Made by a program: the position numbers and the translations under genes
The notes under the pieces: generated by a model
Databases searched by the model: none
Seen by the model: the letters and a program-made list of their open reading frames with translations, nothing else
What the model was told of the DNA's origin: nothing
NCBI GenBank assembly: GCA_963720005.1
Contig: CAVREM010000042.1
Coordinates: 307,918 to 371,917, forward strand
From: an uncultured Acidobacteriota bacterium
GTDB lineage: Bacteria; Acidobacteriota; Vicinamibacteria; Vicinamibacterales; CAVVIG01
Length of the DNA: 64,000 bases
Reading direction: 5' to 3'
Shown: piece by piece, positions 5,067 through 62,928 of the stretch
Layout of the letters: every line of letters starts with the position of its first letter
Numbering within the stretch: position 1 is the first letter of the stretch

Positions 5067-6111
5067 AGGCGCGGCGACGCTGCGCGAGCAACTGGAGGCG
5101 CGGGAGCGCGAGATCCTCGCGCCGCAGGCGACCAAGAGCGCCGATTCGCGCGGACGGCTGCGGCCGGAGCGGGAGGACGATGTCCGGCCGGCCTTTCAGC
5201 GGGATCGCGATCGCATCATCCACTGCAAGGCATTCCGGCGCCTCAAGCACAAGACACAGGTCTTTTTCGCGCCGACCGGCGACCATTACCGGACGCGCCT
5301 CACGCATACCCTCGAGGTGTCACAAATCGCGCGGACGATCGCCAAGGTGCTGCGCCTGCACGAGGAACTGACTGAGGCGATTGCGCTCGGCCACGATCTC
5401 GGGCACTCGCCGTTTGGCCACGCCGGCGAGCGGATCATCGATCGGCTGATGCCCGGGGGGTTCAACCATTACGAGCAGAGCCTCCGCATCGTCGACGTCC
5501 TGGAAAACGATCGCCGCGGCCTGAACCTCACCTGGGAAGTCCGCGACGGGATCGCGAAGCATTCGAAAGGGAAGTCGGGGGCGCCGGTGGGCATGCCGGC
5601 GGGGGTTCGCGCGAGCACGATCGAAGGCCAGATCATGCGCGTCGCGGACCTGATCGCCTACGTCAACCACGACATCGACGACTCGACGCGCGCGGGGTTG
5701 ATCCGTCCCGAAGACCTGCCGCGCGACCTGGTCGCCACGCTCGGCTCGACCTCGTCCGCACGAATTGGCACGCTCGTCACGGACGTCGTCACGGAGACGC
5801 TCGACGCGAACCTGACCGAGATTCGAATGAGCCAGCCAATTCTCGATGCCGTCCTCGGGCTGCGCGCGTTCCTGTTCGATGCGGTCTACGAGAACACGGT
5901 TGCCACCGCCGAGTTCCGGAAAGCCTCCGACATCCTGTCAGGGCTGTGGGAGAAGGTCCGCGAGCGGCCCGGCGAGTTCCTCGATGCGAAGACCGTCGAG
6001 GACGAAGGGCTCGACGCGGCGACGCGCGACTTCGTGGCCGGCATGACCGACCGCTACGCCATCCGCCTGTTCGAACAGCTTTTCATTCCCAAGCCCTGGG
6101 CGATTGAATAG
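5047..6111 (+). CDS. dgt: dGTP triphosphohydrolase-like HD-domain protein
   Basis: The in-frame ATG at 5047 overlaps the deoB 3' end. Motifs FQRDRDRIIHCKAFRRLKHKTQVF and HD motif ALGHDLGHSPFGHAGE are present. The upstream part of track ORF 4798.. is out-of-frame deoB sequence. Confidence 0.8.
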   Translation: MRSSSDKGAATLREQLEAREREILAPQATKSADSRGRLRPEREDDVRPAFQRDRDRIIHCKAFRRLKHKTQVFFAPTGDHYRTRLTHTLEVSQIARTIAKVLRLHEELTEAIALGHDLGHSPFGHAGERIIDRLMPGGFNHYEQSLRIVDVLENDRRGLNLTWEVRDGIAKHSKGKSGAPVGMPAGVRASTIEGQIMRVADLIAYVNHDIDDSTRAGLIRPEDLPRDLVATLGSTSSARIGTLVTDVVTETLDANLTEIRMSQPILDAVLGLRAFLFDAVYENTVATAEFRKASDILSGLWEKVRERPGEFLDAKTVEDEGLDAATRDFVAGMTDRYAIRLFEQLFIPKPWAIE

Positions 6112-6120
6112 TCGGCCCGC

Positions 6121-6335
6121 TGAGGCGCGCGCCTCCGAACGGCTCGCGCCCGGGCAGTTTCAGGCGCTTCGTCTAACAAGGTCGAACTCGCGAGCGAGCG
6201 CGCGAGCGAGCCACGCGAACGGAGCGCGCCGGGAAGCGGCGCGCGAGAGCCCGCCTTCGCGCCGAAGGCGTTCGGCGAGGTCTCGCCGTAGCTTTAGCGG
6301 AGGCGGAAGCTGTGGGGACGGGCGACTCGGGTACG
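6121..6335. repeat. GC-rich dispersed repeat (related copy at 61575-61735)
   Basis: Shares the ordered blocks GCGAGCGAGCCAC, GCGAACGG, GCGCGCCGG, AGCGGCGCGCGAGAG and (C/G)TGTGGGG with 61575-61735. It also carries the CCGCCTTCGC word seen in the 45181 arrays. Confidence 0.6.
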
Positions 6336-19902: not shown

Positions 19903-20234
19903 GCGCGCCTCAAGACACGGCCGATCGCCAGCGCCAACCGATCCCAGTTCGAGGTTTCGACGACGAGCTGCTTGCGGCCCTTCGCGGTCAGCCGGTAGAA
20001 CTTCGCCTTGCGGTTGTTCTCGGAGGTGCCCTCGGCGAAGGCGATCCATCCGCGCTTGATCAGCCGGTGCAGCGCGGGATACAGCGATCCCTGTTCGACC
20101 CGCAGCACCGCGTCGGAGCTCTGCTCGATCGCCTTGGCGATGGCATGGCCGTGGGCGGGCCCGGCCTCGAGGGTCTGCAGGATCAGCAGGTCGAGGGTGC
20201 CTTGCAGGAGCTCGATCTTGTGTGTGGTAGACAT
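19899..20234 (-). CDS. PadR-family transcriptional regulator
   Basis: [64 protein letters not shown] is a typical PadR winged helix. I prefer the ATG at 20234 to the track start at 20261. Confidence 0.85.
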
Positions 20235-20271
20235 TCTAGGTGAGAGTAGACGGGCACACATAGAATGTCAA
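20231..20271 (-). promoter_or_regulatory. Candidate padR promoter (TTGACA-17-TACTCT) with flanking 8-bp inverted repeat; (near-)leaderless
   Basis: The minus strand reads ccccTTGACAttctatgtgtgcccgtcTACTCTcacctagaATG. The inverted repeat ACATTCTA (20231-20238) / TAGAATGT (20261-20268) overlaps the start codon and the -35 box. Confidence 0.5.
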
Positions 20272-20277
20272 GGGGAA

Positions 20278-20318
20278 GAGTCGGTAGTCGGTGTTGGTAG
20301 TCGGTAGTCGAGAGTCGG
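20278..20318. repeat. GTAGTCG-word tandem repeat (half element)
   Basis: The sequence is gagtcggtagtcggtgttggtagtcggtagtcgagagtcgg. The reverse-complement word CGACTAC is tandemly repeated at 48835-48873. Confidence 0.75.
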
Positions 20319-20331
20319 TTGACCGCCGGCG

Positions 20332-26452: not shown

Positions 26453-26559
26453 GAATTTAAGATTTCAGATTTAAGATTTCAGATTGGCGCCGATTTGATT
26501 GGCAGCCCGTCTCGCGGCAGCCACCAATCTTAAATCTGAAATCTTAAATCTGAAATTTC
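26453..26559. repeat. AT-rich AGATTTM-word hairpin element, copy A
   Basis: The arm gaatttaagatttcagatttaagatttcagattgg (26453-26487) is followed by the GC core cgccgatttgattggcagcccgtctcgcggcagcca, then the arm ccaatcttaaatctgaaatcttaaatctgaaatttc (26524-26559). Confidence 0.9.
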
Positions 26560-26862: not shown

Positions 26863-28118
<1,256 letters not shown>

Positions 28119-28229
28119 AGATTTAAGATTTCAGATTTCAGATTTAAGATTGGAACGGTCTCGCATGATGGGCTGCCAATCGATAACCTGCGCCAATCTG
28201 AAATCTGAAATCATGAAATCTTAAATTTC
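28119..28229. repeat. AT-rich AGATTTM-word hairpin element, copy B (core inverted relative to copy A)
   Basis: Arms are agatttaagatttcagatttcagatttaagattgg and ccaatctgaaatctgaaatcatgaaatcttaaatttc. The reverse complement of the core contains GATTGGCAGCCC, identical to copy A. Confidence 0.9.
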
Positions 28230-35387: not shown

Positions 35388-35416
35388 CCGGCGCTGATCT
35401 TAGCCGACCCACGCTT

Positions 35417-35491
35417 GAGTTGGTGAGTTCGTGAGTTGGTGAGTTCGTGAGTCGATGAATTCACCAACTCTCCAATTCACCAACTCACCAA
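35417..35491. repeat. Palindrome built from GAGTTGGT/GAGTTCGT words (same word family as 1457-1600)
   Basis: The sequence is gagttggtgagttcgtgagttggtgagttcgtgagtcgatGAATTCaccaactctccaattcaccaactcaccaa. It lies between the divergent MFS and deacetylase genes. Confidence 0.85.
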
Positions 35492-35509
35492 TGTAGAATT
35501 GCGCTCCCC

Positions 35510-36548: not shown

Positions 36549-36642
36549 GTAGGGCGGACCGCTGTAGGGCGGACCTCTTAGGTCCGCCGATTCCCGAGAA
36601 ACGCCGGGCCTGAGAGGCCCGGCCTACGGAGGCCCGGCCTAC
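36549..36642. terminator. REP-like GC hairpins between convergent genes (possible bidirectional terminator)
   Basis: GTAGGGCGGACC...GTAGGGCGGACC-TCTTA-GGTCCGCC has its stem at 36568-36588. GCCGGGCC-TGAGA-GGCCCGGCCTAC (36603-36627) is followed by GGCCCGGCCTAC. No U-tracts are present. Confidence 0.45.
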
Positions 36643-43857: not shown

Positions 43858-44815
43858 ATGCCCACACCGTCGGCCGTTCTCGAGCAGATCAAGTCGGCCA
43901 CCCCCGCTCCCATCTACCTCCTGTTCGGCGAGGACGACGTCGAGAAGGCGGCGCTGGCCCACGATTTCGAGGATCTGGTCGAAGAGGGGCTTCGGGCGTT
44001 CAACGTCGAGCGCCTGCATGCCGGCGACTGGACGACTGGCGATCGGCTGGCTGCTGGAGTCGCGGGGCTGGTGGCGGCCGTGCGCACGCTGCCAATGATG
44101 GTGCCGCGCCGCGTCGTGGTGCTCCTGCAGGCCGATGCGGTCCTGATGCCGAAGCGCGAGAGCGAGGCCGCCTCGCGCGCCCTCGAGGAGCTCGAACGCC
44201 TGATCGGCTCACCCCCGGCAGAGACGACGCTCGTCATCGTCGCCGGGTCGGTCGACAAACGCGGCCGCGTGTTCAAGCTGCTCTCGAAGCACGCGGCGCT
44301 GGTGGAGTGCGGTGTCCTCGAAACCGTGGCCGACGCCGAACGATGGATCAAAAACCAGGTGGCCGCGTCCGGCATCGCGATGGCCCCGGCCGGCGCGCGC
44401 CTGCTGGCCGAACGATGCGGGCCTGACGTCAAGCGGCTGCGCAACGACGTCGAGCGCCTGCTGCTCTACGCGATGGGCCAGAAGACGATCGAGCTGGACG
44501 ACGTCCGGGAGATCGTCGGCCCGGCGGCGCTGCAGGACGACTGGGCCATGACGAATGCCATCGAGGCGGGTGACGGCGCCGACCGCGCTGCGGCAACTGG
44601 CGCTCATGCTCGACGCCGGTCTGCCGCCGGAAAAAGTGCTGGGACAGCTTGGCTGGATGGTTCGGGCCAAGTTTCCGCAGGTCGCGCCGGGCCGGCTGAG
44701 GAAGTCGGTCGAGGCCGTCTTTCGCACGGACGTCGACCTGAAGCGGACCGCCGGCGATCCGCGCGTGCTGCTGGAACGGCTGGTGGTGGAGTTGTGCGAG
44801 AGGCGCCGGGCCTGA
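43858..44815 (+). CDS. holA: DNA polymerase III delta subunit (frame broken at about 44575)
   Basis: MPTPSAVLEQIKSATPAPIYLLFGEDDVEKAAL... is followed by the C-terminal piece ALRQLALMLDAGLPPEKVLGQLGWMVRAKF...DLKRTAGDPRVLLERLVVELC in a second frame. Confidence 0.8.
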
Positions 44816-44878
44816 AGGCCCGGCCTACGTACGTAGGCCCGGCTGCGGCCGGCGAACTGGCGGGGCGAGCCCGCCCTA
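44804..44878. repeat. REP-like GC hairpins (the holA stop codon lies in a hairpin loop)
   Basis: The sequence contains GCCGGGCC-TGAA-GGCCCGGCCTAC, then GTACGTAGGCCCGGC..., then GGCGGGGCGAGCCCGCCCTAC. Confidence 0.6.
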
Positions 44879-45145
44879 CGCCGCCTTCGACCTGGCGATC
44901 CTCGTCGTCAGCCGCGACTTATACCGTCCCGCAGCGTTCTTGTGGATGATCCCCTTGCTGGCCATCCGGTCGATGAGCGAGATCGTGTCCTTGAGTGCCG
45001 ACCGTACGGCCGACAGGTCGTTGCCGTCGATCGCCGCGCGGATGCTCTTGAGGGCGTTGCGCAGCCGGGCGCGGAACTGCCGGTTGTGCTCGCGGTTCTT
45101 CAGGCTCTGCCGGTGCGCTTTCAGCGCCGATGCATGACTTGCCAC
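44876..45145 (-). CDS. rpsT: 30S ribosomal protein S20
   Basis: GTG start with GGAGGA upstream. MASHASALKAHRQSLKNREHNRQFRARLRNALKSIR... is present. Confidence 0.9.
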   Translation of the reverse strand: MASHASALKAHRQSLKNREHNRQFRARLRNALKSIRAAIDGNDLSAVRSALKDTISLIDRMASKGIIHKNAAGRYKSRLTTRIARSKAA

Positions 45146-45180
45146 GTAATTCGTCTCCTCCGGAAACGCTAATCATACCA

Positions 45181-45426
45181 TCCGCCTTCGCCCTGTCCTA
45201 TCGCGTGGGCTTCGGCGGACAAGTCCGCCTTCGCCCTGTCCTATCGCGTGGGCTTTGGCGGACAAGTCCGCCTTCGCCCTGTCCTATCACGTGGGCTTTG
45301 GCGGACAAGTCCGCCTTCGCCCTGTCCTATCGCGTGGGCTTTGGCGGACAAGTCCGCCTTCGCCCTGTCCTATCGCGTGGGCTTCGGCGGACAAGTCCGC
45401 CTTCGCCCTGTCCTATCGCGTGGGCT
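45181..45426. repeat. Tandem array 1: 43-bp unit x about 5.7
   Basis: The unit is tccgccttcgccctgtcctatcgcgtgggcttcggcggacaag, starting at 45181, 45224, 45267, 45310, 45353 and 45396. Copies are more than 95% identical. Each junction forms GGCGGA-CAAG-TCCGCC. Confidence 0.95.
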
Positions 45427-45481
45427 GTAGGCCGGGCCTCTCAGGCCCGGCATTGCGGCGGACCTAAAAGGTCCGTCCTAC
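45427..45481. repeat. Two REP-like hairpins separating arrays 1 and 2
   Basis: The hairpins are GTAGGCCGGGCC-TCTCA-GGCCCGGC and GGCGGACC-TAAAA-GGTCCGTCCTAC. Confidence 0.8.
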
Positions 45482-45526
45482 ATCAGGCGCCTCGCGCGAG
45501 AGCGGAGGCGGGGCGGCTTGCCGCGC

Positions 45527-45660
45527 CGTAGCTCGCTCCCGATGGCAGGCGAGCGAAGGCGGGGGGCTTCCCACGTAGACGCTCCCGATGGTAGGCGAGC
45601 GAAGGCGGGGGCTCGCCCCCCGTAGCTCGCTCCCGATGGTAGGCGAGCGAAGGCTGGGGA
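45527..45660. repeat. Tandem array 2: about 47-bp unit x 3
   Basis: The unit cgtagctcgctcccgatggtaggcgagcgaaggcgggggc... starts at 45527, 45574 and 45621. Each unit has an internal hairpin GCTCGC-N12-GCGAGC. Confidence 0.85.
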
Positions 45661-45663
45661 CAT

Positions 45664-45831
45664 CCACCTTCGCGCTTCACGCTAGTCGGTGGACAAGCCC
45701 ACCACCGCGCTTCACGCTTCGGCGGACAAGCCCACCTTCGCGCTTCACGCTTCGGTGGACAAGCCCACCTCCGCGCTTCGCGCTACGGCGGACAAGCCCA
45801 CCTTCGCGTTTCACGCTACGGTGGACAAGCC
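45664..45831. repeat. Tandem array 3: 33-bp unit x 5, abutting the padR ATG
   Basis: The unit ccaccttcgcgcttcacgcttcggtggacaagc starts at 45664, 45699, 45732, 45765 and 45798. Junction hairpins GGTGG-ACAAGC-CCACC form between units. The last unit ends at 45831. Confidence 0.9.
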
Positions 45832-46179
45832 ATGACCAGACGATCCAGCGGCGACCGCCTCGAGTTGGTGCAAGGCACCCTCGACATGCTGATTCTGCGA
45901 ACCCTTCAATCCGGGTCCCAGCACGGATACGGGATCAGTCAGGCGATCCGGGCGCAGTCGGCCGAGGTGCTTCAGGTCGAGACCGGTTCGCTCTACCCGG
46001 CGCTCCACCGGTTGGAGGAACGCGGGTGGGTGAAATCCGAGTGGGGGCAAAGCGACGCCAACCAGCGCGCCAAATACTACCGGCTCACCGCTGAAGGGAA
46101 GCGGCAGTTGCTCCGCGAACGCGATCGCTGGAGCCAGCTCGTTGGGGCGGTCGCGCGGATTATGAAGGAGCAGGAATGA
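45832..46179 (+). CDS. PadR-family transcriptional regulator (second copy)
   Basis: The sequence reads [58 protein letters not shown]. Confidence 0.85.
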   Translation: MTRRSSGDRLELVQGTLDMLILRTLQSGSQHGYGISQAIRAQSAEVLQVETGSLYPALHRLEERGWVKSEWGQSDANQRAKYYRLTAEGKRQLLRERDRWSQLVGAVARIMKEQE

Positions 46180-48834
46180 CTCCCTGGCAGCGGCTCTTTC
46201 AACGAGGCCGGCGCGATGTCGATCTCCGCGAGGAAATCGACGCTCATCTCGCCATGGACGTGCGTGTTCGGATCCAGGCGGGCGACGACCCGGAATCCGC
46301 CCGGCGGGCCGCGGTCAAGGACTTCGGCAACGTCATGCTGACAAGAGAAGCCACGCGACGAAGCTGGAAAGGCGAGCGGCTCGTCGAGGCGTTTGCCGAT
46401 CTGGCACGCGACATCGCCTATGCGGTGCGGCTGCTGAGACGAACCCCTGGCTTCGCCCTCGTCGTCATTGCCGTGCTCGGGATCGGCGTTGGCGCGAACG
46501 CCGCGGTGTTCAGCCTGTTCAAGGGAGTCGTTCTGCGGCCGCTGCCAGGCGTGGACGATGCGAACGGACTCGGCGTGGTCATCACAAGGACCACCGGCGG
46601 TCGGATCATGCCGTTGACTCACCCCGACTTCGAATACATCCGCGATCACGACCAGGTATTTACGTCGCTTGCCGCGTCGAGCAATCAGCGGCTCAGCATC
46701 GCAGCCGATGGACGAACCGAACGGGTCTGGACCGAGATAGTGAGCGGGCGGTACTTCGAGACCCTGGGCGTCAATGCTGAGCTCGGTCGTGTGCTCGATC
46801 CGGGTGACGACGTCGCACCGGGCGGACATCCGGTCGCGGTCATCAGCGACGGGCTGTGGCGGCGGATGTTCAGCGCCGACCAGCAGATTGTCGGCCGAAC
46901 GGTTCGCATCAACACCCAGACGTTCACCATCGTCGGCGTCGCGGAACGGGGTTTCCGGGGCTCGATCGTCAGCATGGTGGTCGACCTGTTCGTGCCGCTG
47001 ATGATGCAGCCGCAAGTCGCCCCGCCGGGCCAGCTGAATCGTCGCGAGGCGTCGATGCTGATGGTGCTTGGACGCCTCAAGCCCGGGACGCCGCTGGCGA
47101 CGGCAGCCGCGCAGACCGAGGTGCTTGCCGCCCAGCTCGCGGCCGAATTTCCGATGCCCGAATTCTCCTCTCGCGGGACGGTGATTCCGCTGTGGCGGTC
47201 ACCATTTGGCGCACAGACTTACCTGCTGCCAGCGGTCGGGCTGCTCGGCGCGATGGGAGTCCTCGTGCTGGTCGTGGTGTGCGCCAACCTCGCCAACCTC
47301 GTGTTCGTTCGCGGATTGTCGCGCCAGACCGAGATTGCCATGCGCCTGGCGCTTGGCGCCAGCCGCCTCCGAGTGCTGCGCCTGCTCTTCATCGAGAACG
47401 TGGCACTGGCCCTTCCCGGTGCGGCAATCGGCTTGGGTGTCTCGACGTGGCTCCTGGCGATGATCAGTTTCAACGACCCCGGCGGGGCCGCTCCCGCGGC
47501 CACGGAGCTCGACCTGAGCCTCGACGGGCTTGTCATCGGCTTCGCCATCGGCGCGGCCTGCGTCAGCACCCTGCTGTTCGGACTCTGGCCGTCGATCCGC
47601 AGCTCGCGGCTGGACTTGATTGCGGTCATCAAGCAGGACGGGTCATCGCCGGCCACGTCGCGGGCGCGGCTGCGTGGAGCACTCGTCGCAGCGGAAATCG
47701 CGGTGGCGCTGGTGCTGCTCATCAGCGCGGGGCTCGTCGTCCGCACTGTTCGTGCCATGGAGACAGCCGACGTCGGGTTCGATCCGCGGGATGTCGTCTC
47801 GGTTCAGCTCGACGTCAAGCCGGATGGTTATGACGACGCGCGCGGCCGCGTCCTGTACGAGCAGCTGACCGACTCGTTGCGGCGCCAGCCTGGTATCGAA
47901 GCAGCGGCCGTGGCGGCGTACCCGCCGCTTCGGCTCGTGCCGGGCGGCGACGTCAGGCGGATCACGATCGAAGGGTATGTCGCGCGCGACAACGAAGACC
48001 TCAGCTTCCAGTCCAACGTGGTCGGCCCCTCGTATTTCACGACGCTGCGCATCCCGATGCGGGCGGGCCGTGAATTCGACGAGCGCGACACACAGGACGC
48101 CCCGCTTGCCGCGATCGTCAACGAGACGATGGCGCGCCGGTTCTGGGACAGCCCGGCGAACGCCATCGGCAAGCGATTTCAATCGGGACGCGGCTGGTGG
48201 ACGATCGTCGGCGTCGCCGCTGATATCAAGTATTTCACCGTCAATGAATCTCCTCGACCGTTCCTTTACGCAGCGCTTGCCCAGAACTATCGATCGGAGA
48301 TGATGGTGCACGCGCGGGCCGTGGCCGGATCGCGCAACCTCGTGGAGTTGGGCCGCCGCACCATCTCCGCTCACGACCCGACGCTCACACTGCTGCAGGT
48401 GGCGACGTTGGCCGACCAGGTCAAGACTGGGATGGGCATCCAGCAACTTGCCGGGCTGGGTCTGACGGCTTTCGGTGGCCTCGCGATCGGGCTGGCGGCG
48501 CTGGGCCTGTTCGGGCTCGTTTCCTATACGGTCAAACAAAGCACCCGCGAGATTGGCATCCGGATCGCGCTCGGCGCGTCGCGCACGTCGGTCGTCGGAC
48601 GATTCCTGATGCACGGCGTGAGGCTCGCGTCAATCGGCGCCGTGGCTGGCATGGCGATCGCTGCGCTCTCGACGCGCTTCATGTCGTGCGTTGCTGTACG
48701 GGGTAGGAGCGCTCGACGCCGTGACCTTCGCGGGCGCCGCAGCCGTCGTGATCGCGATCGCCTCCCTATCAGCGGGGTTCGCCGCATCACGCGCGGCCGC
48801 CGTCCAGCCGACAGTCGCTCTTCGACGGAACTGA
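46176..48834 (+). CDS. Duplicated FtsX/MacB-type permease, ADOP-family-like (second copy; frame broken at about 48690)
   Basis: The ATGA overlap with padR is present. MTPWQRLFQRGRRDVDLREEIDAHLAMDV... begins the protein. The true C-terminus LLYGVGALDAVTFAGAAAVVIAIASLSAGFAASRAAAVQPTVALRRN* is in a shifted frame and ends at 48834. Confidence 0.8.
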
Positions 48835-48873
48835 CTACCGACTACTGACTACCGACTACCGACTACCGACTAC
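48835..48873. repeat. CGACTAC-word tandem repeat between convergent genes
   Basis: The sequence is ctaccgactactgactaccgactaccgactaccgactac, the reverse-complement word of 20278-20318. Confidence 0.8.
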
Positions 48874-49541
48874 TGGGGCTTCTTGTCGGTGTATTTCGGG
48901 ATGACGCGCCCGTCGGCGGTCACATCGGAGCCGCGGTAAATCTGAGCGGCCGGCTTGGCAGGCGCGCCGGCGATCTGGTTGATCTTGGTGACGTAGTTGC
49001 GGGTTTCGCGGTACGGCGGCACTTTCTCGCCGTACTTGGCCACCGCGACCGGGCCCGCGTTGTAGGCCGCGAGCGCGAGCACTTCGTCGTTGTTGTAGCG
49101 ATCGAGTAATTGCCGCAGGTACCTGACGCCGGCGCGAATGTTCTCGATCGGGTTGAAGGGGTTCAGCACGCCCAGCGCCTGCGACGTCGCCGGCATCAAC
49201 TGCATCAACCCTTGCGCGCCCTTGGGCGACACCGCGTAGGGATTGAACGCCGATTCCACCTGCACGACGGCGCGTACCAGATCGGGCCGGATGTTGTGCA
49301 TCCGCGAGTGCTCGACGATCACCTCGTCGTAGAGCCGCCCACGCTCGGCCGGCGCGGAGCGCGTCGCGCGTACGGCATCGGTCTTCGGGACCGCGTACGA
49401 GATGACGGGCGCAGCCCCTTCGCGCGGCTTGTTCGACAGCACCAGCGTGCCGGTGTCGTCCCGCCACGAATAGATCTGCGCCTGAGCTGGCACGGCCGCC
49501 GCGACCAGGGCCGCCGCGACCAACGCACGGATGAGCAACAT
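48870..49541 (-). CDS. Lytic transglycosylase (SLT domain) with signal peptide
   Basis: Start MLLIRALVAAALVAAAVPAQA at 49541. VVQVESAFNPYAVSPKGAQGLMQLMP and AAYNAGPVAV are present. Confidence 0.85.
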   Translation of the reverse strand: MLLIRALVAAALVAAAVPAQAQIYSWRDDTGTLVLSNKPREGAAPVISYAVPKTDAVRATRSAPAERGRLYDEVIVEHSRMHNIRPDLVRAVVQVESAFNPYAVSPKGAQGLMQLMPATSQALGVLNPFNPIENIRAGVRYLRQLLDRYNNDEVLALAAYNAGPVAVAKYGEKVPPYRETRNYVTKINQIAGAPAKPAAQIYRGSDVTADGRVIPKYTDKKPQ

Positions 49542-54853: not shown

Positions 54854-54948
54854 GGGACTCGGTGCTCGTGGCTCGGTGCTCGGGAAGGCCCGGGTCGTGT
54901 CCCGAGTCCCGAGTCGCGAGTCCCGAGCACCGAGCCTCGAGCCCCGAG
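54854..54948. repeat. Palindromic element built from CTCGGTG/CGAGTCC words
   Basis: The left arm gggactcggtgctcgtggctcggtgctcggga pairs with tcccgagcaccgagcc (16-bp perfect match) inside cccgagtcccgagtcgcgagtcccgagcaccgagcctcgagccccgag. Confidence 0.8.
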
Positions 54949-54965
54949 TTTTACCAGTTTATCGG

Positions 54966-59209: not shown

Positions 59210-59280
59210 GAATTTAAGATTTCAGATTTCAGATTTAAGATTGGCGAGGATCTGGCGGGCAGCCTGACCCCGGCCAAATC
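59210..59280. repeat. AT-rich AGATTTM-word element, copy C (left arm + core only)
   Basis: The arm gaatttaagatttcagatttcagatttaagattgg is followed by the core cgaggatctggcgggcagcctgaccccggccaaatc. The complementary arm is absent. Confidence 0.8.
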
Positions 59281-61574: not shown

Positions 61575-61735
61575 AAACCAGCGAGCGAGCGAGCGAGCCA
61601 CCCACCTTCGCAGCGTAGCCGCCGCTGCTACGGTGGGCAGGCGCGAACGGCCTGTCCGCCGTAGCGTAGCGAAGCGGAAGCGCGCCGGCGCAGCGGCGCG
61701 CGAGAGAGCGTGTGGGGGAGTCCGAGGGGCGCTAG
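61575..61735. repeat. GC-rich dispersed repeat (related to 6121-6335)
   Basis: The sequence is cagcgagcgagcgagcgagccacccaccttcgcagcgtagccgccgctgctacggtggg...gcgaacgg...gcgcgccggcgcagcggcgcgcgagagagcgtgtggggg. Confidence 0.6.
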
Positions 61736-62832: not shown

Positions 62833-62928
62833 GAATTTAAGATTTCAGATTTAAGATTTAAGATTGGCGTGCCGGACTGGGCCGCCAGTCGCGCCGTCAC
62901 CAATCTGAAATCTGTAAATCTGAAATTC
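62833..62928. repeat. AT-rich AGATTTM-word hairpin element, copy D
   Basis: The arm gaatttaagatttcagatttaagatttaagattgg is followed by the core cgtgccggactgggccgccagtcgcgccgtca, then the arm ccaatctgaaatctgtaaatctgaaattc. Confidence 0.9.

Follow-up and report, generated by a model that had tools for sequence, protein, structure and literature searches.

In the window analysed here, a 64,000-nucleotide stretch of DNA from an uncultured Acidobacteriota bacterium, the genes rpsT and padR-2 diverge from a 686-bp spacer (45146-45831, bounded by open reading frames (ORFs) and Pfam matches) that holds three tandem arrays of hairpin-bearing units and, between the first two, a dimer of repetitive extragenic palindromic (REP) sequences. 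This arrangement of three arrays had been proposed from the sequence alone (hereafter the original prediction), and it was confirmed by Tandem Repeats Finder, by a second repeat search that returned the same array registers, and by shuffle controls. The features of the locus are the following.

44876-45145, minus strand: rpsT, ribosomal protein S20 (GTG start at 45145; Pfam Ribosomal_S20p, E = 4e-24)
45172-45199, minus strand: rpsT promoter-like site, -35 AGGACA (45199-45194), 16-nt spacer, extended -10 TG-G-TATGAT (45180-45172)
45181-45426, plus strand: 43-bp module array, 5.7 copies; unit TCCGCC-TTC-GCCC[tgtcctatcrcgt]GGGC-TTY-GGCGGA-CAAG
45427-45481, no strand assigned: canonical GTAG-tagged REP inverted dimer, between the 43- and 47-bp arrays
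45487-45663, minus strand (module reversed): 47/48-bp array, ~3.3-3.8 copies, the first one degenerate; plus strand reads GTAG-CTCGC[tcccgatggyag]GCGAG-CGAA-GG with the junction hairpin GGGGGG-CTYS-CCCCC
45656-45663, plus strand: junction GGGGACAT, where ~40 bp are missing relative to all other alleles that reach it (aACACCATGTAGACGTTCTACGTCCAAGCCCGTAGATTGCCT followed by ACAT)
45664-45831, plus strand: 33-bp module array, 5 copies; unit CCACC-TYC-GCG[cttca]CGC-TWC-GGYGGA-CAAG-C
45832-46179, plus strand: padR-2, PadR-family regulator (Pfam PadR, E = 1e-21), overlapping the start of the permease gene
46176-48848, plus strand: MacB_PCD/FtsX duplicated permease of the ADOP type (Pfam), with a 1-nt insertion at 48686 that shifts the C-terminal frame relative to the orthologous contig L077

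Tandem Repeats Finder gave the 43-bp array a period of 43 with 5.7 copies and 98% matches, the 47/48-bp array (45500-45659) a period of 48 with 3.3 copies and 85% matches, and the 33-bp array a period of 33 with 5.0 copies and 88% matches, a period of 66 fitting the last better (93%) and revealing a higher-order 66-bp dimer; its final copy stops 2 nt short of the padR ATG. In the shuffle controls the 43-mer matched 5 times with 0 expected, CCRCCTTCGC 13 times with 1.13 expected, and GGYGGACAAG 10 times in the window with 0.31 expected, every one of these ten within the spacer, so that the arrays are not due to chance. The GGYGGACAAG junction that all units had been said to share is present in the 43- and 33-mers but not in the 47-mers, in which CCGCCTTCGC occurs on the minus strand only, in two of the three copies. 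Likewise, CTACGG does mark the last two 33-mers as described, but the TACGGT attributed to this change is confined to the last one.

As also predicted, the spacer is neither a CRISPR array nor coding. Its units resemble CRISPR repeats in being regularly spaced, partly palindromic and 24-48 bp long, but they are contiguous at 43, 46-48 and 33 bp, their variable part repeats with the unit, no unique spacers separate them, no tRNA was found, the neighbours are rpsT, holA, padR and the permease gene, and the ORFs inspected (43.5-48 kb) provide no leader or cas context. The periods (28-31, 34, 43 and 47 nt) are not multiples of 3, and the ORF inside the 33-mer array is out of frame with padR, which led us to reject a coding reading. 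Rfam gave no gathering-level match in the window and, at E <= 10, only two chance-level matches within 44800-46000.

The two-tier hairpin module

By sequence, a single module, TCCRCC-TTC-GC[variable stem-loop]GC-TWC-GGYGGA-CAAG, recurs in variant forms in all three arrays. It comprises an outer stem (TCCRCC/GGYGGA), a conserved unpaired 3x3 loop (TTC against TWC), a GC-flanked inner stem-loop that is free in sequence and length, and an unpaired CAAG tail. The inner part reads GCCC[13 nt]GGGC in the 43-mer, GCG[CTTCA]CGC in the 33-mer and, on the minus strand, GCTCGC[12 nt]GCGAGC in the 47-mer, whose outer stem is a G-rich variant. A covariance model, R1, seeded with 42 instances (39 from other loci and 3 from the 33-mer array of the window), recovered the 43-mers at E = 4e-9 and the 47-mers on the minus strand at 45515-45564 (E = 1e-5) and 45610-45659; neither type was in the seed, and the sequence alignment likewise shows one module behind all the arrays.

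Across the 42 instances, 94% of the cells in the two-tier fold were paired against 87% in shuffles, and 42 double-sided changes were counted against 13.7, values reached by 0 of 500 shuffles, while sliding the partner columns lowered pairing to 33-44%. The inner stem occurs as GC/GC, GCC/GGC, GCCC/GGGC, GCGC/GCGC and GCAGCG/CGCTGC; conservation of sequence is seen in the outer stem, in the TTC/TWC loop and in the CAAG tail. A generic scan for TWC-stem-loop-stem-TYC with any stem found enrichment for the GGYGGA/TCCRCC stem only, indicating that not only the structure but also the sequence of the outer stem is conserved.

Any GGYGGA can find its partner in the CCRCC on either side, which makes an array a quasi-palindrome, able to fold either into successive hairpins like the rungs of a ladder or into a single long structure, a nested hairpin or cruciform; in ViennaRNA folds, runs of three or four units gave a single nested hairpin interrupted by 3x3 internal loops. 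Folding z-scores were -6.4 and -7.0 for the 43-bp array, -6.8 for the 33-bp array on the minus strand and -3.2 for the 47-bp array on the plus strand. The 33-bp array folded at -81 kcal/mol on the minus strand against -47 on the plus strand, and the 47-bp array at -78 kcal/mol on the strand with GAA/GWA against -65 on the other, the more stable strand being in each case the one with GAA/GWA in its internal loops. This gap arises from CCACC/GGCGG combinations, which give G.U pairs on the GAA/GWA strand and A.C mismatches on the other; in the covariation alignment, 7 pairs were G.U solely on the GAA/GWA strand and 1 on the other.

The two REP-like hairpins that had been noticed at 45427-45481 proved to be GTAG-tagged REPs of two types. 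Arm 1 reads GTAGGCCGGGCC-tctca-GGCCCGGC and arm 2, on the minus strand, GTAGGACGGACC-tttta-GGTCCGCC; the dimer folds at -38.5 kcal/mol (z = -5.9), and both types recur in the window at 36549-36642 and 44817-44879.

Alleles of the spacer and the flanking promoters

A search with PadR-2 returned 7981 homologues at E <= 1e-20, and from the PadR homologue search we compared the orthologous locus in eleven other contigs.

L079, L081-84: PadR 87-92% identity, 0 copies of the 33-mer
L087: PadR 97-99% identity, 1 copy
L077, L078, L080, L088: PadR 97-99% identity, 2 copies
L089: PadR 97-99% identity, 4 copies
Window: PadR reference, 5 copies

L077 and L078 share the synteny holA-rpsT/padR-permease and the 89-aa rpsT ORF of the window, with flanks ~96-97% identical, but their spacers measure 291 and 315 bp, respectively, against 686 bp in the window. 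The 47-type units range from one to ~3.5 copies between alleles (with a CTTG loop in L078), and the REP dimer is kept in L077 and has lost half of its second arm in L078. The 43-mer array occurs in the window only: in L077 and L078, the sole other alleles that span its position, the sequence runs from taatcatacca through cccgcgac and GTAGG straight into the REP dimer. L089 and the window carry extra TTCAC-type units at the promoter-proximal end, and these additions, together with the 66-bp period, point to growth by duplication of resident units (slippage or unequal exchange) rather than repeated insertion. The copy-number variation anticipated by the original prediction is thus present among strain alleles (0, 1, 2, 4 or 5 of the 33-mer), and its suggestion of an expansion hot-spot of a GC-rich repeat family agrees with the differing counts of 33- and 47-type units between strains.

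One hairpin related to the 47-type unit, CCCGCC-TCC-GCTCGC...GC-GAA-GGCGGG, lies at 2290-2335 of L081, and in the same sequence in L082, between the stop codon of an unrelated upstream gene and the padR operator, which suggests that the 47-type module is older than the juxtaposition of rpsT and padR and travels with padR.

In the module-free orthologues, ...TGTAGACATTCTACGTCCAAGGCTGTAGATTGCCTAC directly precedes the padR ATG, and a promoter scan of L081 identified TAGACA-17-TAGATT, 6 nt before the ATG and conserved in L079 and L081-84, a spacing that implies a leaderless padR mRNA. Two GTAGA...TCTAC palindromes overlap the -35 and -10 boxes of this ancestral promoter, a layout that would be expected of an autorepressor, PadR dimers being known to bind palindromic operators (PMC5728393). 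Promoter and operator are kept in all relatives whose contig extends that far. In L087 one 36-nt module, ATCCACCTCCGCGCTTCGCGCTACGGCGGACAAGCC, has ...GCCTAC directly before it and ATG directly after it, a position which indicates that the primary event was an insertion at the transcription start/start codon that regenerated the ATG. The modules lie between the ancestral promoter and the ATG, displacing the promoter from padR, which is probably now leadered, with the hairpin as its leader.

The ~40 bp missing from the window are this promoter and its operator-like palindromes, which are absent from the window as a whole: ...GGGGACATCCACC stands for ...GGGGGGAACACC[ATGTAGACG...GATTGCCT]ACATCCACC of the other alleles, with an ACA microhomology at the junction. 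A promoter scan of 45050-45950 found no plus-strand sigma-70-like site left for padR. In particular, TACGGT, put forward earlier as a possible -10 box, was not picked up by the scan and lacks a -35 or TG partner; at 9 nt before the ATG it is found only in the window allele, the one without the ancestral promoter, the others having TACGGC or TCCGGC, so that a -10 role is conceivable. The sole sigma-70-like match in the scanned region is the rpsT site, whose -35 AGGACA falls inside the first 43-mer, and the extended -10 of which, TGGTATGAT, is conserved in L077 and L078, which without 43-mers give no full promoter match.

A second padR gene of the window, padR-1 (19908-20243, minus strand), is preceded by TTGACA-17-TACTCT-8-ATG, read by eye and below the threshold of the scan, and also looks leaderless. 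A perfect 9-bp inverted repeat, GACATTCTA...TAGAATGTC (20243-20290, minus strand), extends across its -35 box and start codon, with a half-site similar to the GTAGACATTCTAC palindromes of the padR-2 orthologues. One heptamer array (CGACTAC/GACTACC, ~6 copies) occurs both just upstream of the padR-1 promoter (20279-20319) and directly after the stop codon of the padR-2-linked permease gene (48830-48875).

Relative to both L077 and L078, single-base insertions at 44581 and 48686 of the window break the essential holA and the C-terminal 60 residues of the permease, and near position 2811 of L077 the permease gene is 2 nt short. These indels are probably assembly errors, and the frameshifts of the window are accordingly not to be read as pseudogenes; decay of the permease gene after promoter loss was considered and rejected, given that the essential holA has a 1-nt indel too.

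The module in the window and in other phyla

Two further intergenic sites place the module at three separate positions within the 64 kb.

6252-6305, no strand assigned: inverted module pair; R1 match at 6284-6305 on the minus strand (E = 7e-4), 6252-6277 on the plus strand weak
61600-61679, no strand assigned: inverted module pair in a divergent intergenic region; R1 matches at 61600-61643 on the plus strand (E = 5e-6) and 61649-61679 on the minus strand (E = 4e-4)

The 6284-6305 copy reads CCGCC-TCC-GC-TAAA-GC-TAC-GGCG on the minus strand, a form common in other phyla. Runs of (GCGA)n/(AGCG)n directly precede both pairs (6189-6229 and 61580-61598), and the 47-mers have the GCGAGCGA word of these runs as their inner stem.

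A scan for the junction word GGYGGACAAGYCCRCCTTCGC, with each GTDB species represented by one genome, gave 78 matches in 76 loci. A 5' flank GCT[ATC][CT], not demanded by the scan, was present at 40 of the 78 (background 0.55%), and a second CCRCCNYCGC lay at most 50 nt upstream of 29 (background ~1%); the rest were mostly coding or chance matches. The genuine ones belong to Acidobacteriota (including Vicinamibacterales and Thermoanaerobaculia), Verrucomicrobiota, Kiritimatiellia, Planctomycetota, Bacteroidota (Cyclobacteriaceae, Saprospiraceae and Ohtaekwangia), Balneolaceae, Ignavibacteria, Patescibacteria, Proteobacteria and Thermoleophilia. The module is extragenic, with covarying stems, in genomes of at least nine phyla. 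Many copies form short head-to-tail arrays with a period of ~28-34 nt, sometimes variable in copy number at orthologous sites (L007, L017, L036 and L048 of Cyclobacteriaceae), and singletons consist of the junction hairpin alone, GC-TWC-GGYGGA-CAAG-YCCRCC-TTC-GC. The TCCGCCTTCGCTAAAGCTACGGCGGACAAG form is nearly identical in Verrucomicrobiota, Bacteroidota, Paceibacterota, Acidobacteriota and the window (6284-6305). In low-GC genomes the module clusters are intergenic without a fixed orientation to genes, and the 8-kb loci often contain further dispersed copies.

A gathering-level Rfam search of 18 module-bearing loci returned one tRNA and nothing else. The spacer had no BLAST match in plasmid or phage collections, and IMG/VR contained only 2 pattern matches, which argues that the module is not a phage or plasmid element. 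Literature searches with module strings produced unrelated primers or nothing, and the supplements of Di Nocera et al. nothing.

Ser/Thr kinase genes adjoin modules in Ignavibacteria only. In the loci concerned (L053:2200-2600, L049:750-1150, L056:2650-3080, L062:1850-2330 and 5398-5520), an upstream ORF (uORF) of ~30 codons before several tandem kinase paralogues copies the kinase N-terminus (MIGxTIxHYxIxEKLGEGG) and runs into a module hairpin, GCGAAGGYGGR-CTTG-TCCRCC-GWAGC, ~25 nt upstream of the true kinase ATG. The 3' arm can pair with the GEGG codons of the uORF or with the identical kinase codons ~90 nt downstream, both of which the covariance model scores, and the element looks like a translation-coupled attenuator or leader.

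At L017:780-900 (Cyclobacteriaceae), ~10 copies of an iteron-like 10-11-mer, TGGACAAAA(C/G), similar to the module word GGTGGACAAG, adjoin the module array, and neighbours that by eye look like a helix-turn-helix protein and an amidase suggest a mobile element or prophage. In one metagenome-assembled genome of Candidatus Hydrogenedentes (L009 and L023), the junction hairpin lies on two contigs inside a longer repeat, at least 110 bp of which are conserved in the 161 nt displayed, and the module may there be part of a larger mobile element. The segment between inverted modules in L051 was considered as a carrier of a transposase and rejected, as by eye it contains ccoG- and fixH-like genes instead.

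Nature and origin of the cluster

Di Nocera et al. (2013; PMC3733652) described GTAG- and CGTC-tagged REP superfamilies, which are defined by an unpaired terminal tetranucleotide. In these REPs an outer stem is followed by non-complementary di- or trinucleotides and by loops flanked by GC/GC or GGC/GCC with self-complementary interiors, and REP clusters are reiterated in tandem along with flanking DNA (PMC3733652). The module of the rpsT/padR spacer resembles REPs and the interspersed mosaic elements of bacteria (BIMEs) in being a short, GC-rich, extragenic, apparently dispersed imperfect palindrome with two-tier architecture and occasional G-T pairing, and a bona fide GTAG-REP dimer sits in mid-spacer. 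It falls within the 20-40 nt of a REP palindrome that forms a stem-loop (94% paired, z of -3 to -7), and its copy number differs between close strains, as in variable-number tandem repeat (VNTR) loci. The best fit is therefore a REP/BIME-like cluster that behaves as a VNTR, which as a local feature is of a known kind. As the terminal tag is missing, we class it as working like a REP cluster and not as a member of a named REP family; the invariant unpaired parts of the module are instead the TTC/TWC internal loop and the CAAG (CTTG) tail. The possibility, raised by the original prediction, that the units are a known annotated repeat applies to the middle hairpins, which are ordinary GTAG REPs, and to the arrays insofar as they fit the REP clusters of PMC3733652, but not to the cross-phylum module itself, which is in no RNA or repeat catalogue searched and whose sequence was not found in the literature searched.

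In behaviour the locus also resembles two other repeat systems. Mycobacterial interspersed repetitive unit (MIRU)-VNTR loci consist of interspersed intergenic units of 40-100 bp that abut start or stop codons, are reiterated in tandem and vary between strains, a description reportedly due to Supply et al. in 1997 and 2000; MIRUs, however, are not strongly palindromic, are oriented with the operon, often contain small overlapping ORFs and show no similarity to the module sequence. In the Neisseria intergenic mosaic elements (NIMEs), dRS3 repeats alternate with RS units in tandem intergenic, strain-variable recombination hot-spots. The alternation of a short conserved inverted-repeat word with variable segments is shared with the module, but sequence, host range and unit size (50-150 bp) differ, and dRS3 is a phage integration target, for which the module shows nothing comparable.

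Taking these observations together, we regard the spacer as a hypervariable cluster of REP-type palindromes, selfish or neutral structural DNA whose effects on expression are side effects of its position, with a probability of roughly 0.66. The allele comparison shows that a single 36-nt module landed exactly between the -10/start region and the ATG of an ancestrally leaderless padR. Resident modules would then have been amplified locally by slipped-strand mispairing or unequal recombination, as the copy-number series and the 66-bp periodicity suggest, with the 33-mers presumably multiplied as 66-bp dimers to give alleles of 1, 2, 4 and 5 copies. A deletion of ~40 bp, apparent as a sequence difference and, judging from the microhomology, probably between ACA repeats, took the padR promoter and the operator palindromes from the window allele. 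On the other side, the 43-mer array occupies the -35 region of the extended -10 promoter of rpsT and happens to provide an AGGACA -35. The likely effects are a structured 5' leader, a promoter displaced or lost and a new -35, without any purpose-built switch. Read in this way, the series of 0, 1, 2, 4 and 5 copies followed by promoter loss illustrates how a palindromic repeat lands, multiplies and rewires two genes: the promoter of an essential ribosomal protein gains a -35, and a regulator gene that was leaderless first acquires a structured leader and later is left without its operator. The locus could also be used as a marker for strain typing.

Several observations weigh against this interpretation. 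The terminal GTAG/CGTC tag, present in the hairpins at 45427-45481, is absent from the array module, in which GTAG is merely an internal-loop variant (CTACGG in the 47-mers and two of the five 33-mers; the 43-mers have CTTYGG). The arrays run head-to-tail instead of alternating, an arrangement rare in classical REPs, and lie in a divergent promoter region, whereas REPs are usually found downstream of genes (PMC3733652). REP families are usually lineage-restricted, whereas the ~30-nt module sequence occurs in at least nine phyla, and the near-identity of these copies hints at a conserved recognition factor or function. For the tyrosine transposases associated with REPs (RAYTs), which REPs typically flank, a crude six-frame scan for HUH...Y-x-x-x-NP in the window and in loci L001-L086 found none, and clustering the ORFs of the loci by shared genes yielded no transposase, only the Ser/Thr kinases recurring. 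Furthermore, several of the other alleles are on short metagenome contigs, possibly from short reads, in which assemblers may have collapsed identical units, although collapse does not explain presence/absence differences or arrays of non-identical units. Finally, the 43-mer array is known from one assembly, which has 1-nt indels even in holA. Scans of a metagenome collection for the 43-mer core and for an anchor in the rpsT leader were empty, negatives that are uninformative as the anchor occurs in L077 and L078, whose samples the collection must therefore lack.

A bolder account, which we consider unlikely, holds that the module represents an undescribed, horizontally spread palindrome superfamily, marked by the CAAG/CTTG tail and the fixed TTC/TWC loop in place of a GTAG or CGTC tag, that is kept nearly unchanged in at least nine phyla because a single conserved factor recognises it, and that actively remodels promoters and leaders. 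This factor could be a nuclease or transposase of its own, or an RNA- or DNA-binding protein of the host; padR would have been turned from a leaderless, autoregulated gene into a leadered and finally a promoter-less one, and in Ignavibacteria the module would have been built into the uORF/hairpin leaders of Ser/Thr kinases, one arm serving as the GEGG codon string.

The usual picture of REP-type repeats links them to one lineage and to a transposase resident in it, with which a 30-nt module common to many phyla, its stems covarying but its loop and tail fixed, does not fit, and a common recognition factor, if it exists, would open a new way into the biology of repeats in soil phyla that have been little studied.

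Compared with selfish or neutral REP-type DNA, a contingency locus, in which selected changes of copy number tune or switch padR-permease expression by altering leader structure and how far the promoter/operator lies from the ATG, and maybe tune rpsT as well through its -35 region, seems to us distinctly unlikely. Copy number does vary precisely between promoter and ATG among near-identical strains, the 43-mer places a -35-like AGGACA 16 nt from the rpsT extended -10, TACGGT is unique to the allele without the ancestral promoter, and GTAG-1 REP arrays flanking exopolysaccharide (EPS) genes in Thauera have been proposed as modulators of expression (PMC3733652). Yet the module lies at unrelated extragenic sites in many phyla with inconsistent position and orientation to genes, padR in the window is left without a plus-strand promoter-like site, and units of 33-47 bp are not typical of slippage-prone contingency repeats. 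Of the VNTR-type regulatory region originally predicted, the VNTR behaviour is retained (1, 2, 4 and 5 copies of the 33-mer at 97-99% PadR identity), while nothing shows a dedicated regulatory device, and such a role of the arrays is unproven.

We find it improbable that the arrays act as a structured non-coding RNA, whether a processed repeat RNA of the type III antitoxin kind, a 5' or 3' hairpin that stabilises mRNA, or a sponge or antisense RNA whose CCRCCUUCGC words pair with GCGAAGGYGG. The covariation of the stems across phyla, the strand asymmetry in folding and in G.U pairs (7 against 1) and the attenuator-like element with kinase GEGG codons in Ignavibacteria would suit such an RNA; the lack of an Rfam match, the inconsistent orientation to flanking genes, and junction hairpins without strand bias (by eye, uncounted) would not. 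Nor does the window contain a kinase gene bearing the GCGAAGGCGG word, and the stem keeps its sequence instead of covarying freely, a sign of sequence-specific recognition. Type III toxin-antitoxin loci have tandem non-coding repeats (ToxI) of ~34-45 nt directly upstream of a gene, but the gene downstream of the arrays encodes a PadR-family protein (Pfam E = 1e-21) and not a ToxN-like endoribonuclease or other toxin-like product, and the module is dispersed at unrelated loci; we rejected this assignment.

Still less probable is an array of protein sites on double-stranded DNA, such as iterons, DnaA-box-like TTGTCCRCC words, PadR operators, or nucleoid-protein or gyrase sites as in BIMEs. A palindrome of conserved sequence at regular spacing is what such sites would look like, and CTTGTCCACC resembles the high-GC DnaA box TTGTCCACA. 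E. coli BIMEs bind gyrase and integration host factor (IHF) (PMC2817692, PMC3479197). Conversely, a replication origin or a cluster of iterons or DnaA boxes was rejected, as the cumulative GC skew rises without inflection and no dnaA or rep gene is nearby; PadR dimers recognise palindromic operators (PMC5728393), but the palindromes conserved upstream of every padR orthologue are the GTAGAC...TCTAC boxes and not the modules; and an inner stem that covaries while its sequence is free speaks for a single strand that folds. That the arrays are spurious assembly expansions is on the whole barely credible, unlikely for the 33- and 47-type units and conceivable chiefly for the 43-mer array: the 43-mer core matched no other sequence, and compared with L077 and L078 the window has 1-nt indels that disrupt holA and the permease gene, but the scanned metagenome collection lacks even the L077 and L078 samples, so that its negative means little, the copies carry individual substitutions, and six other samples (seven contigs) gave independent assemblies of 33- and 47-type units in differing copy numbers.

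A second hairpin-repeat family, unrelated to the module, occupies many intergenic regions of the window as inverted pairs of short 7-8-mer arrays (2640-2813, 26455-26556, 28118-28226, 35416-35492, 54858-54949, 59212-59242 and 62835-62926). These arrays are partly AT-rich in a genome of 66% GC, as exemplified by four copies of ATTTAAG/ATTTCAG facing four of AATCTTA/AATCTGA.

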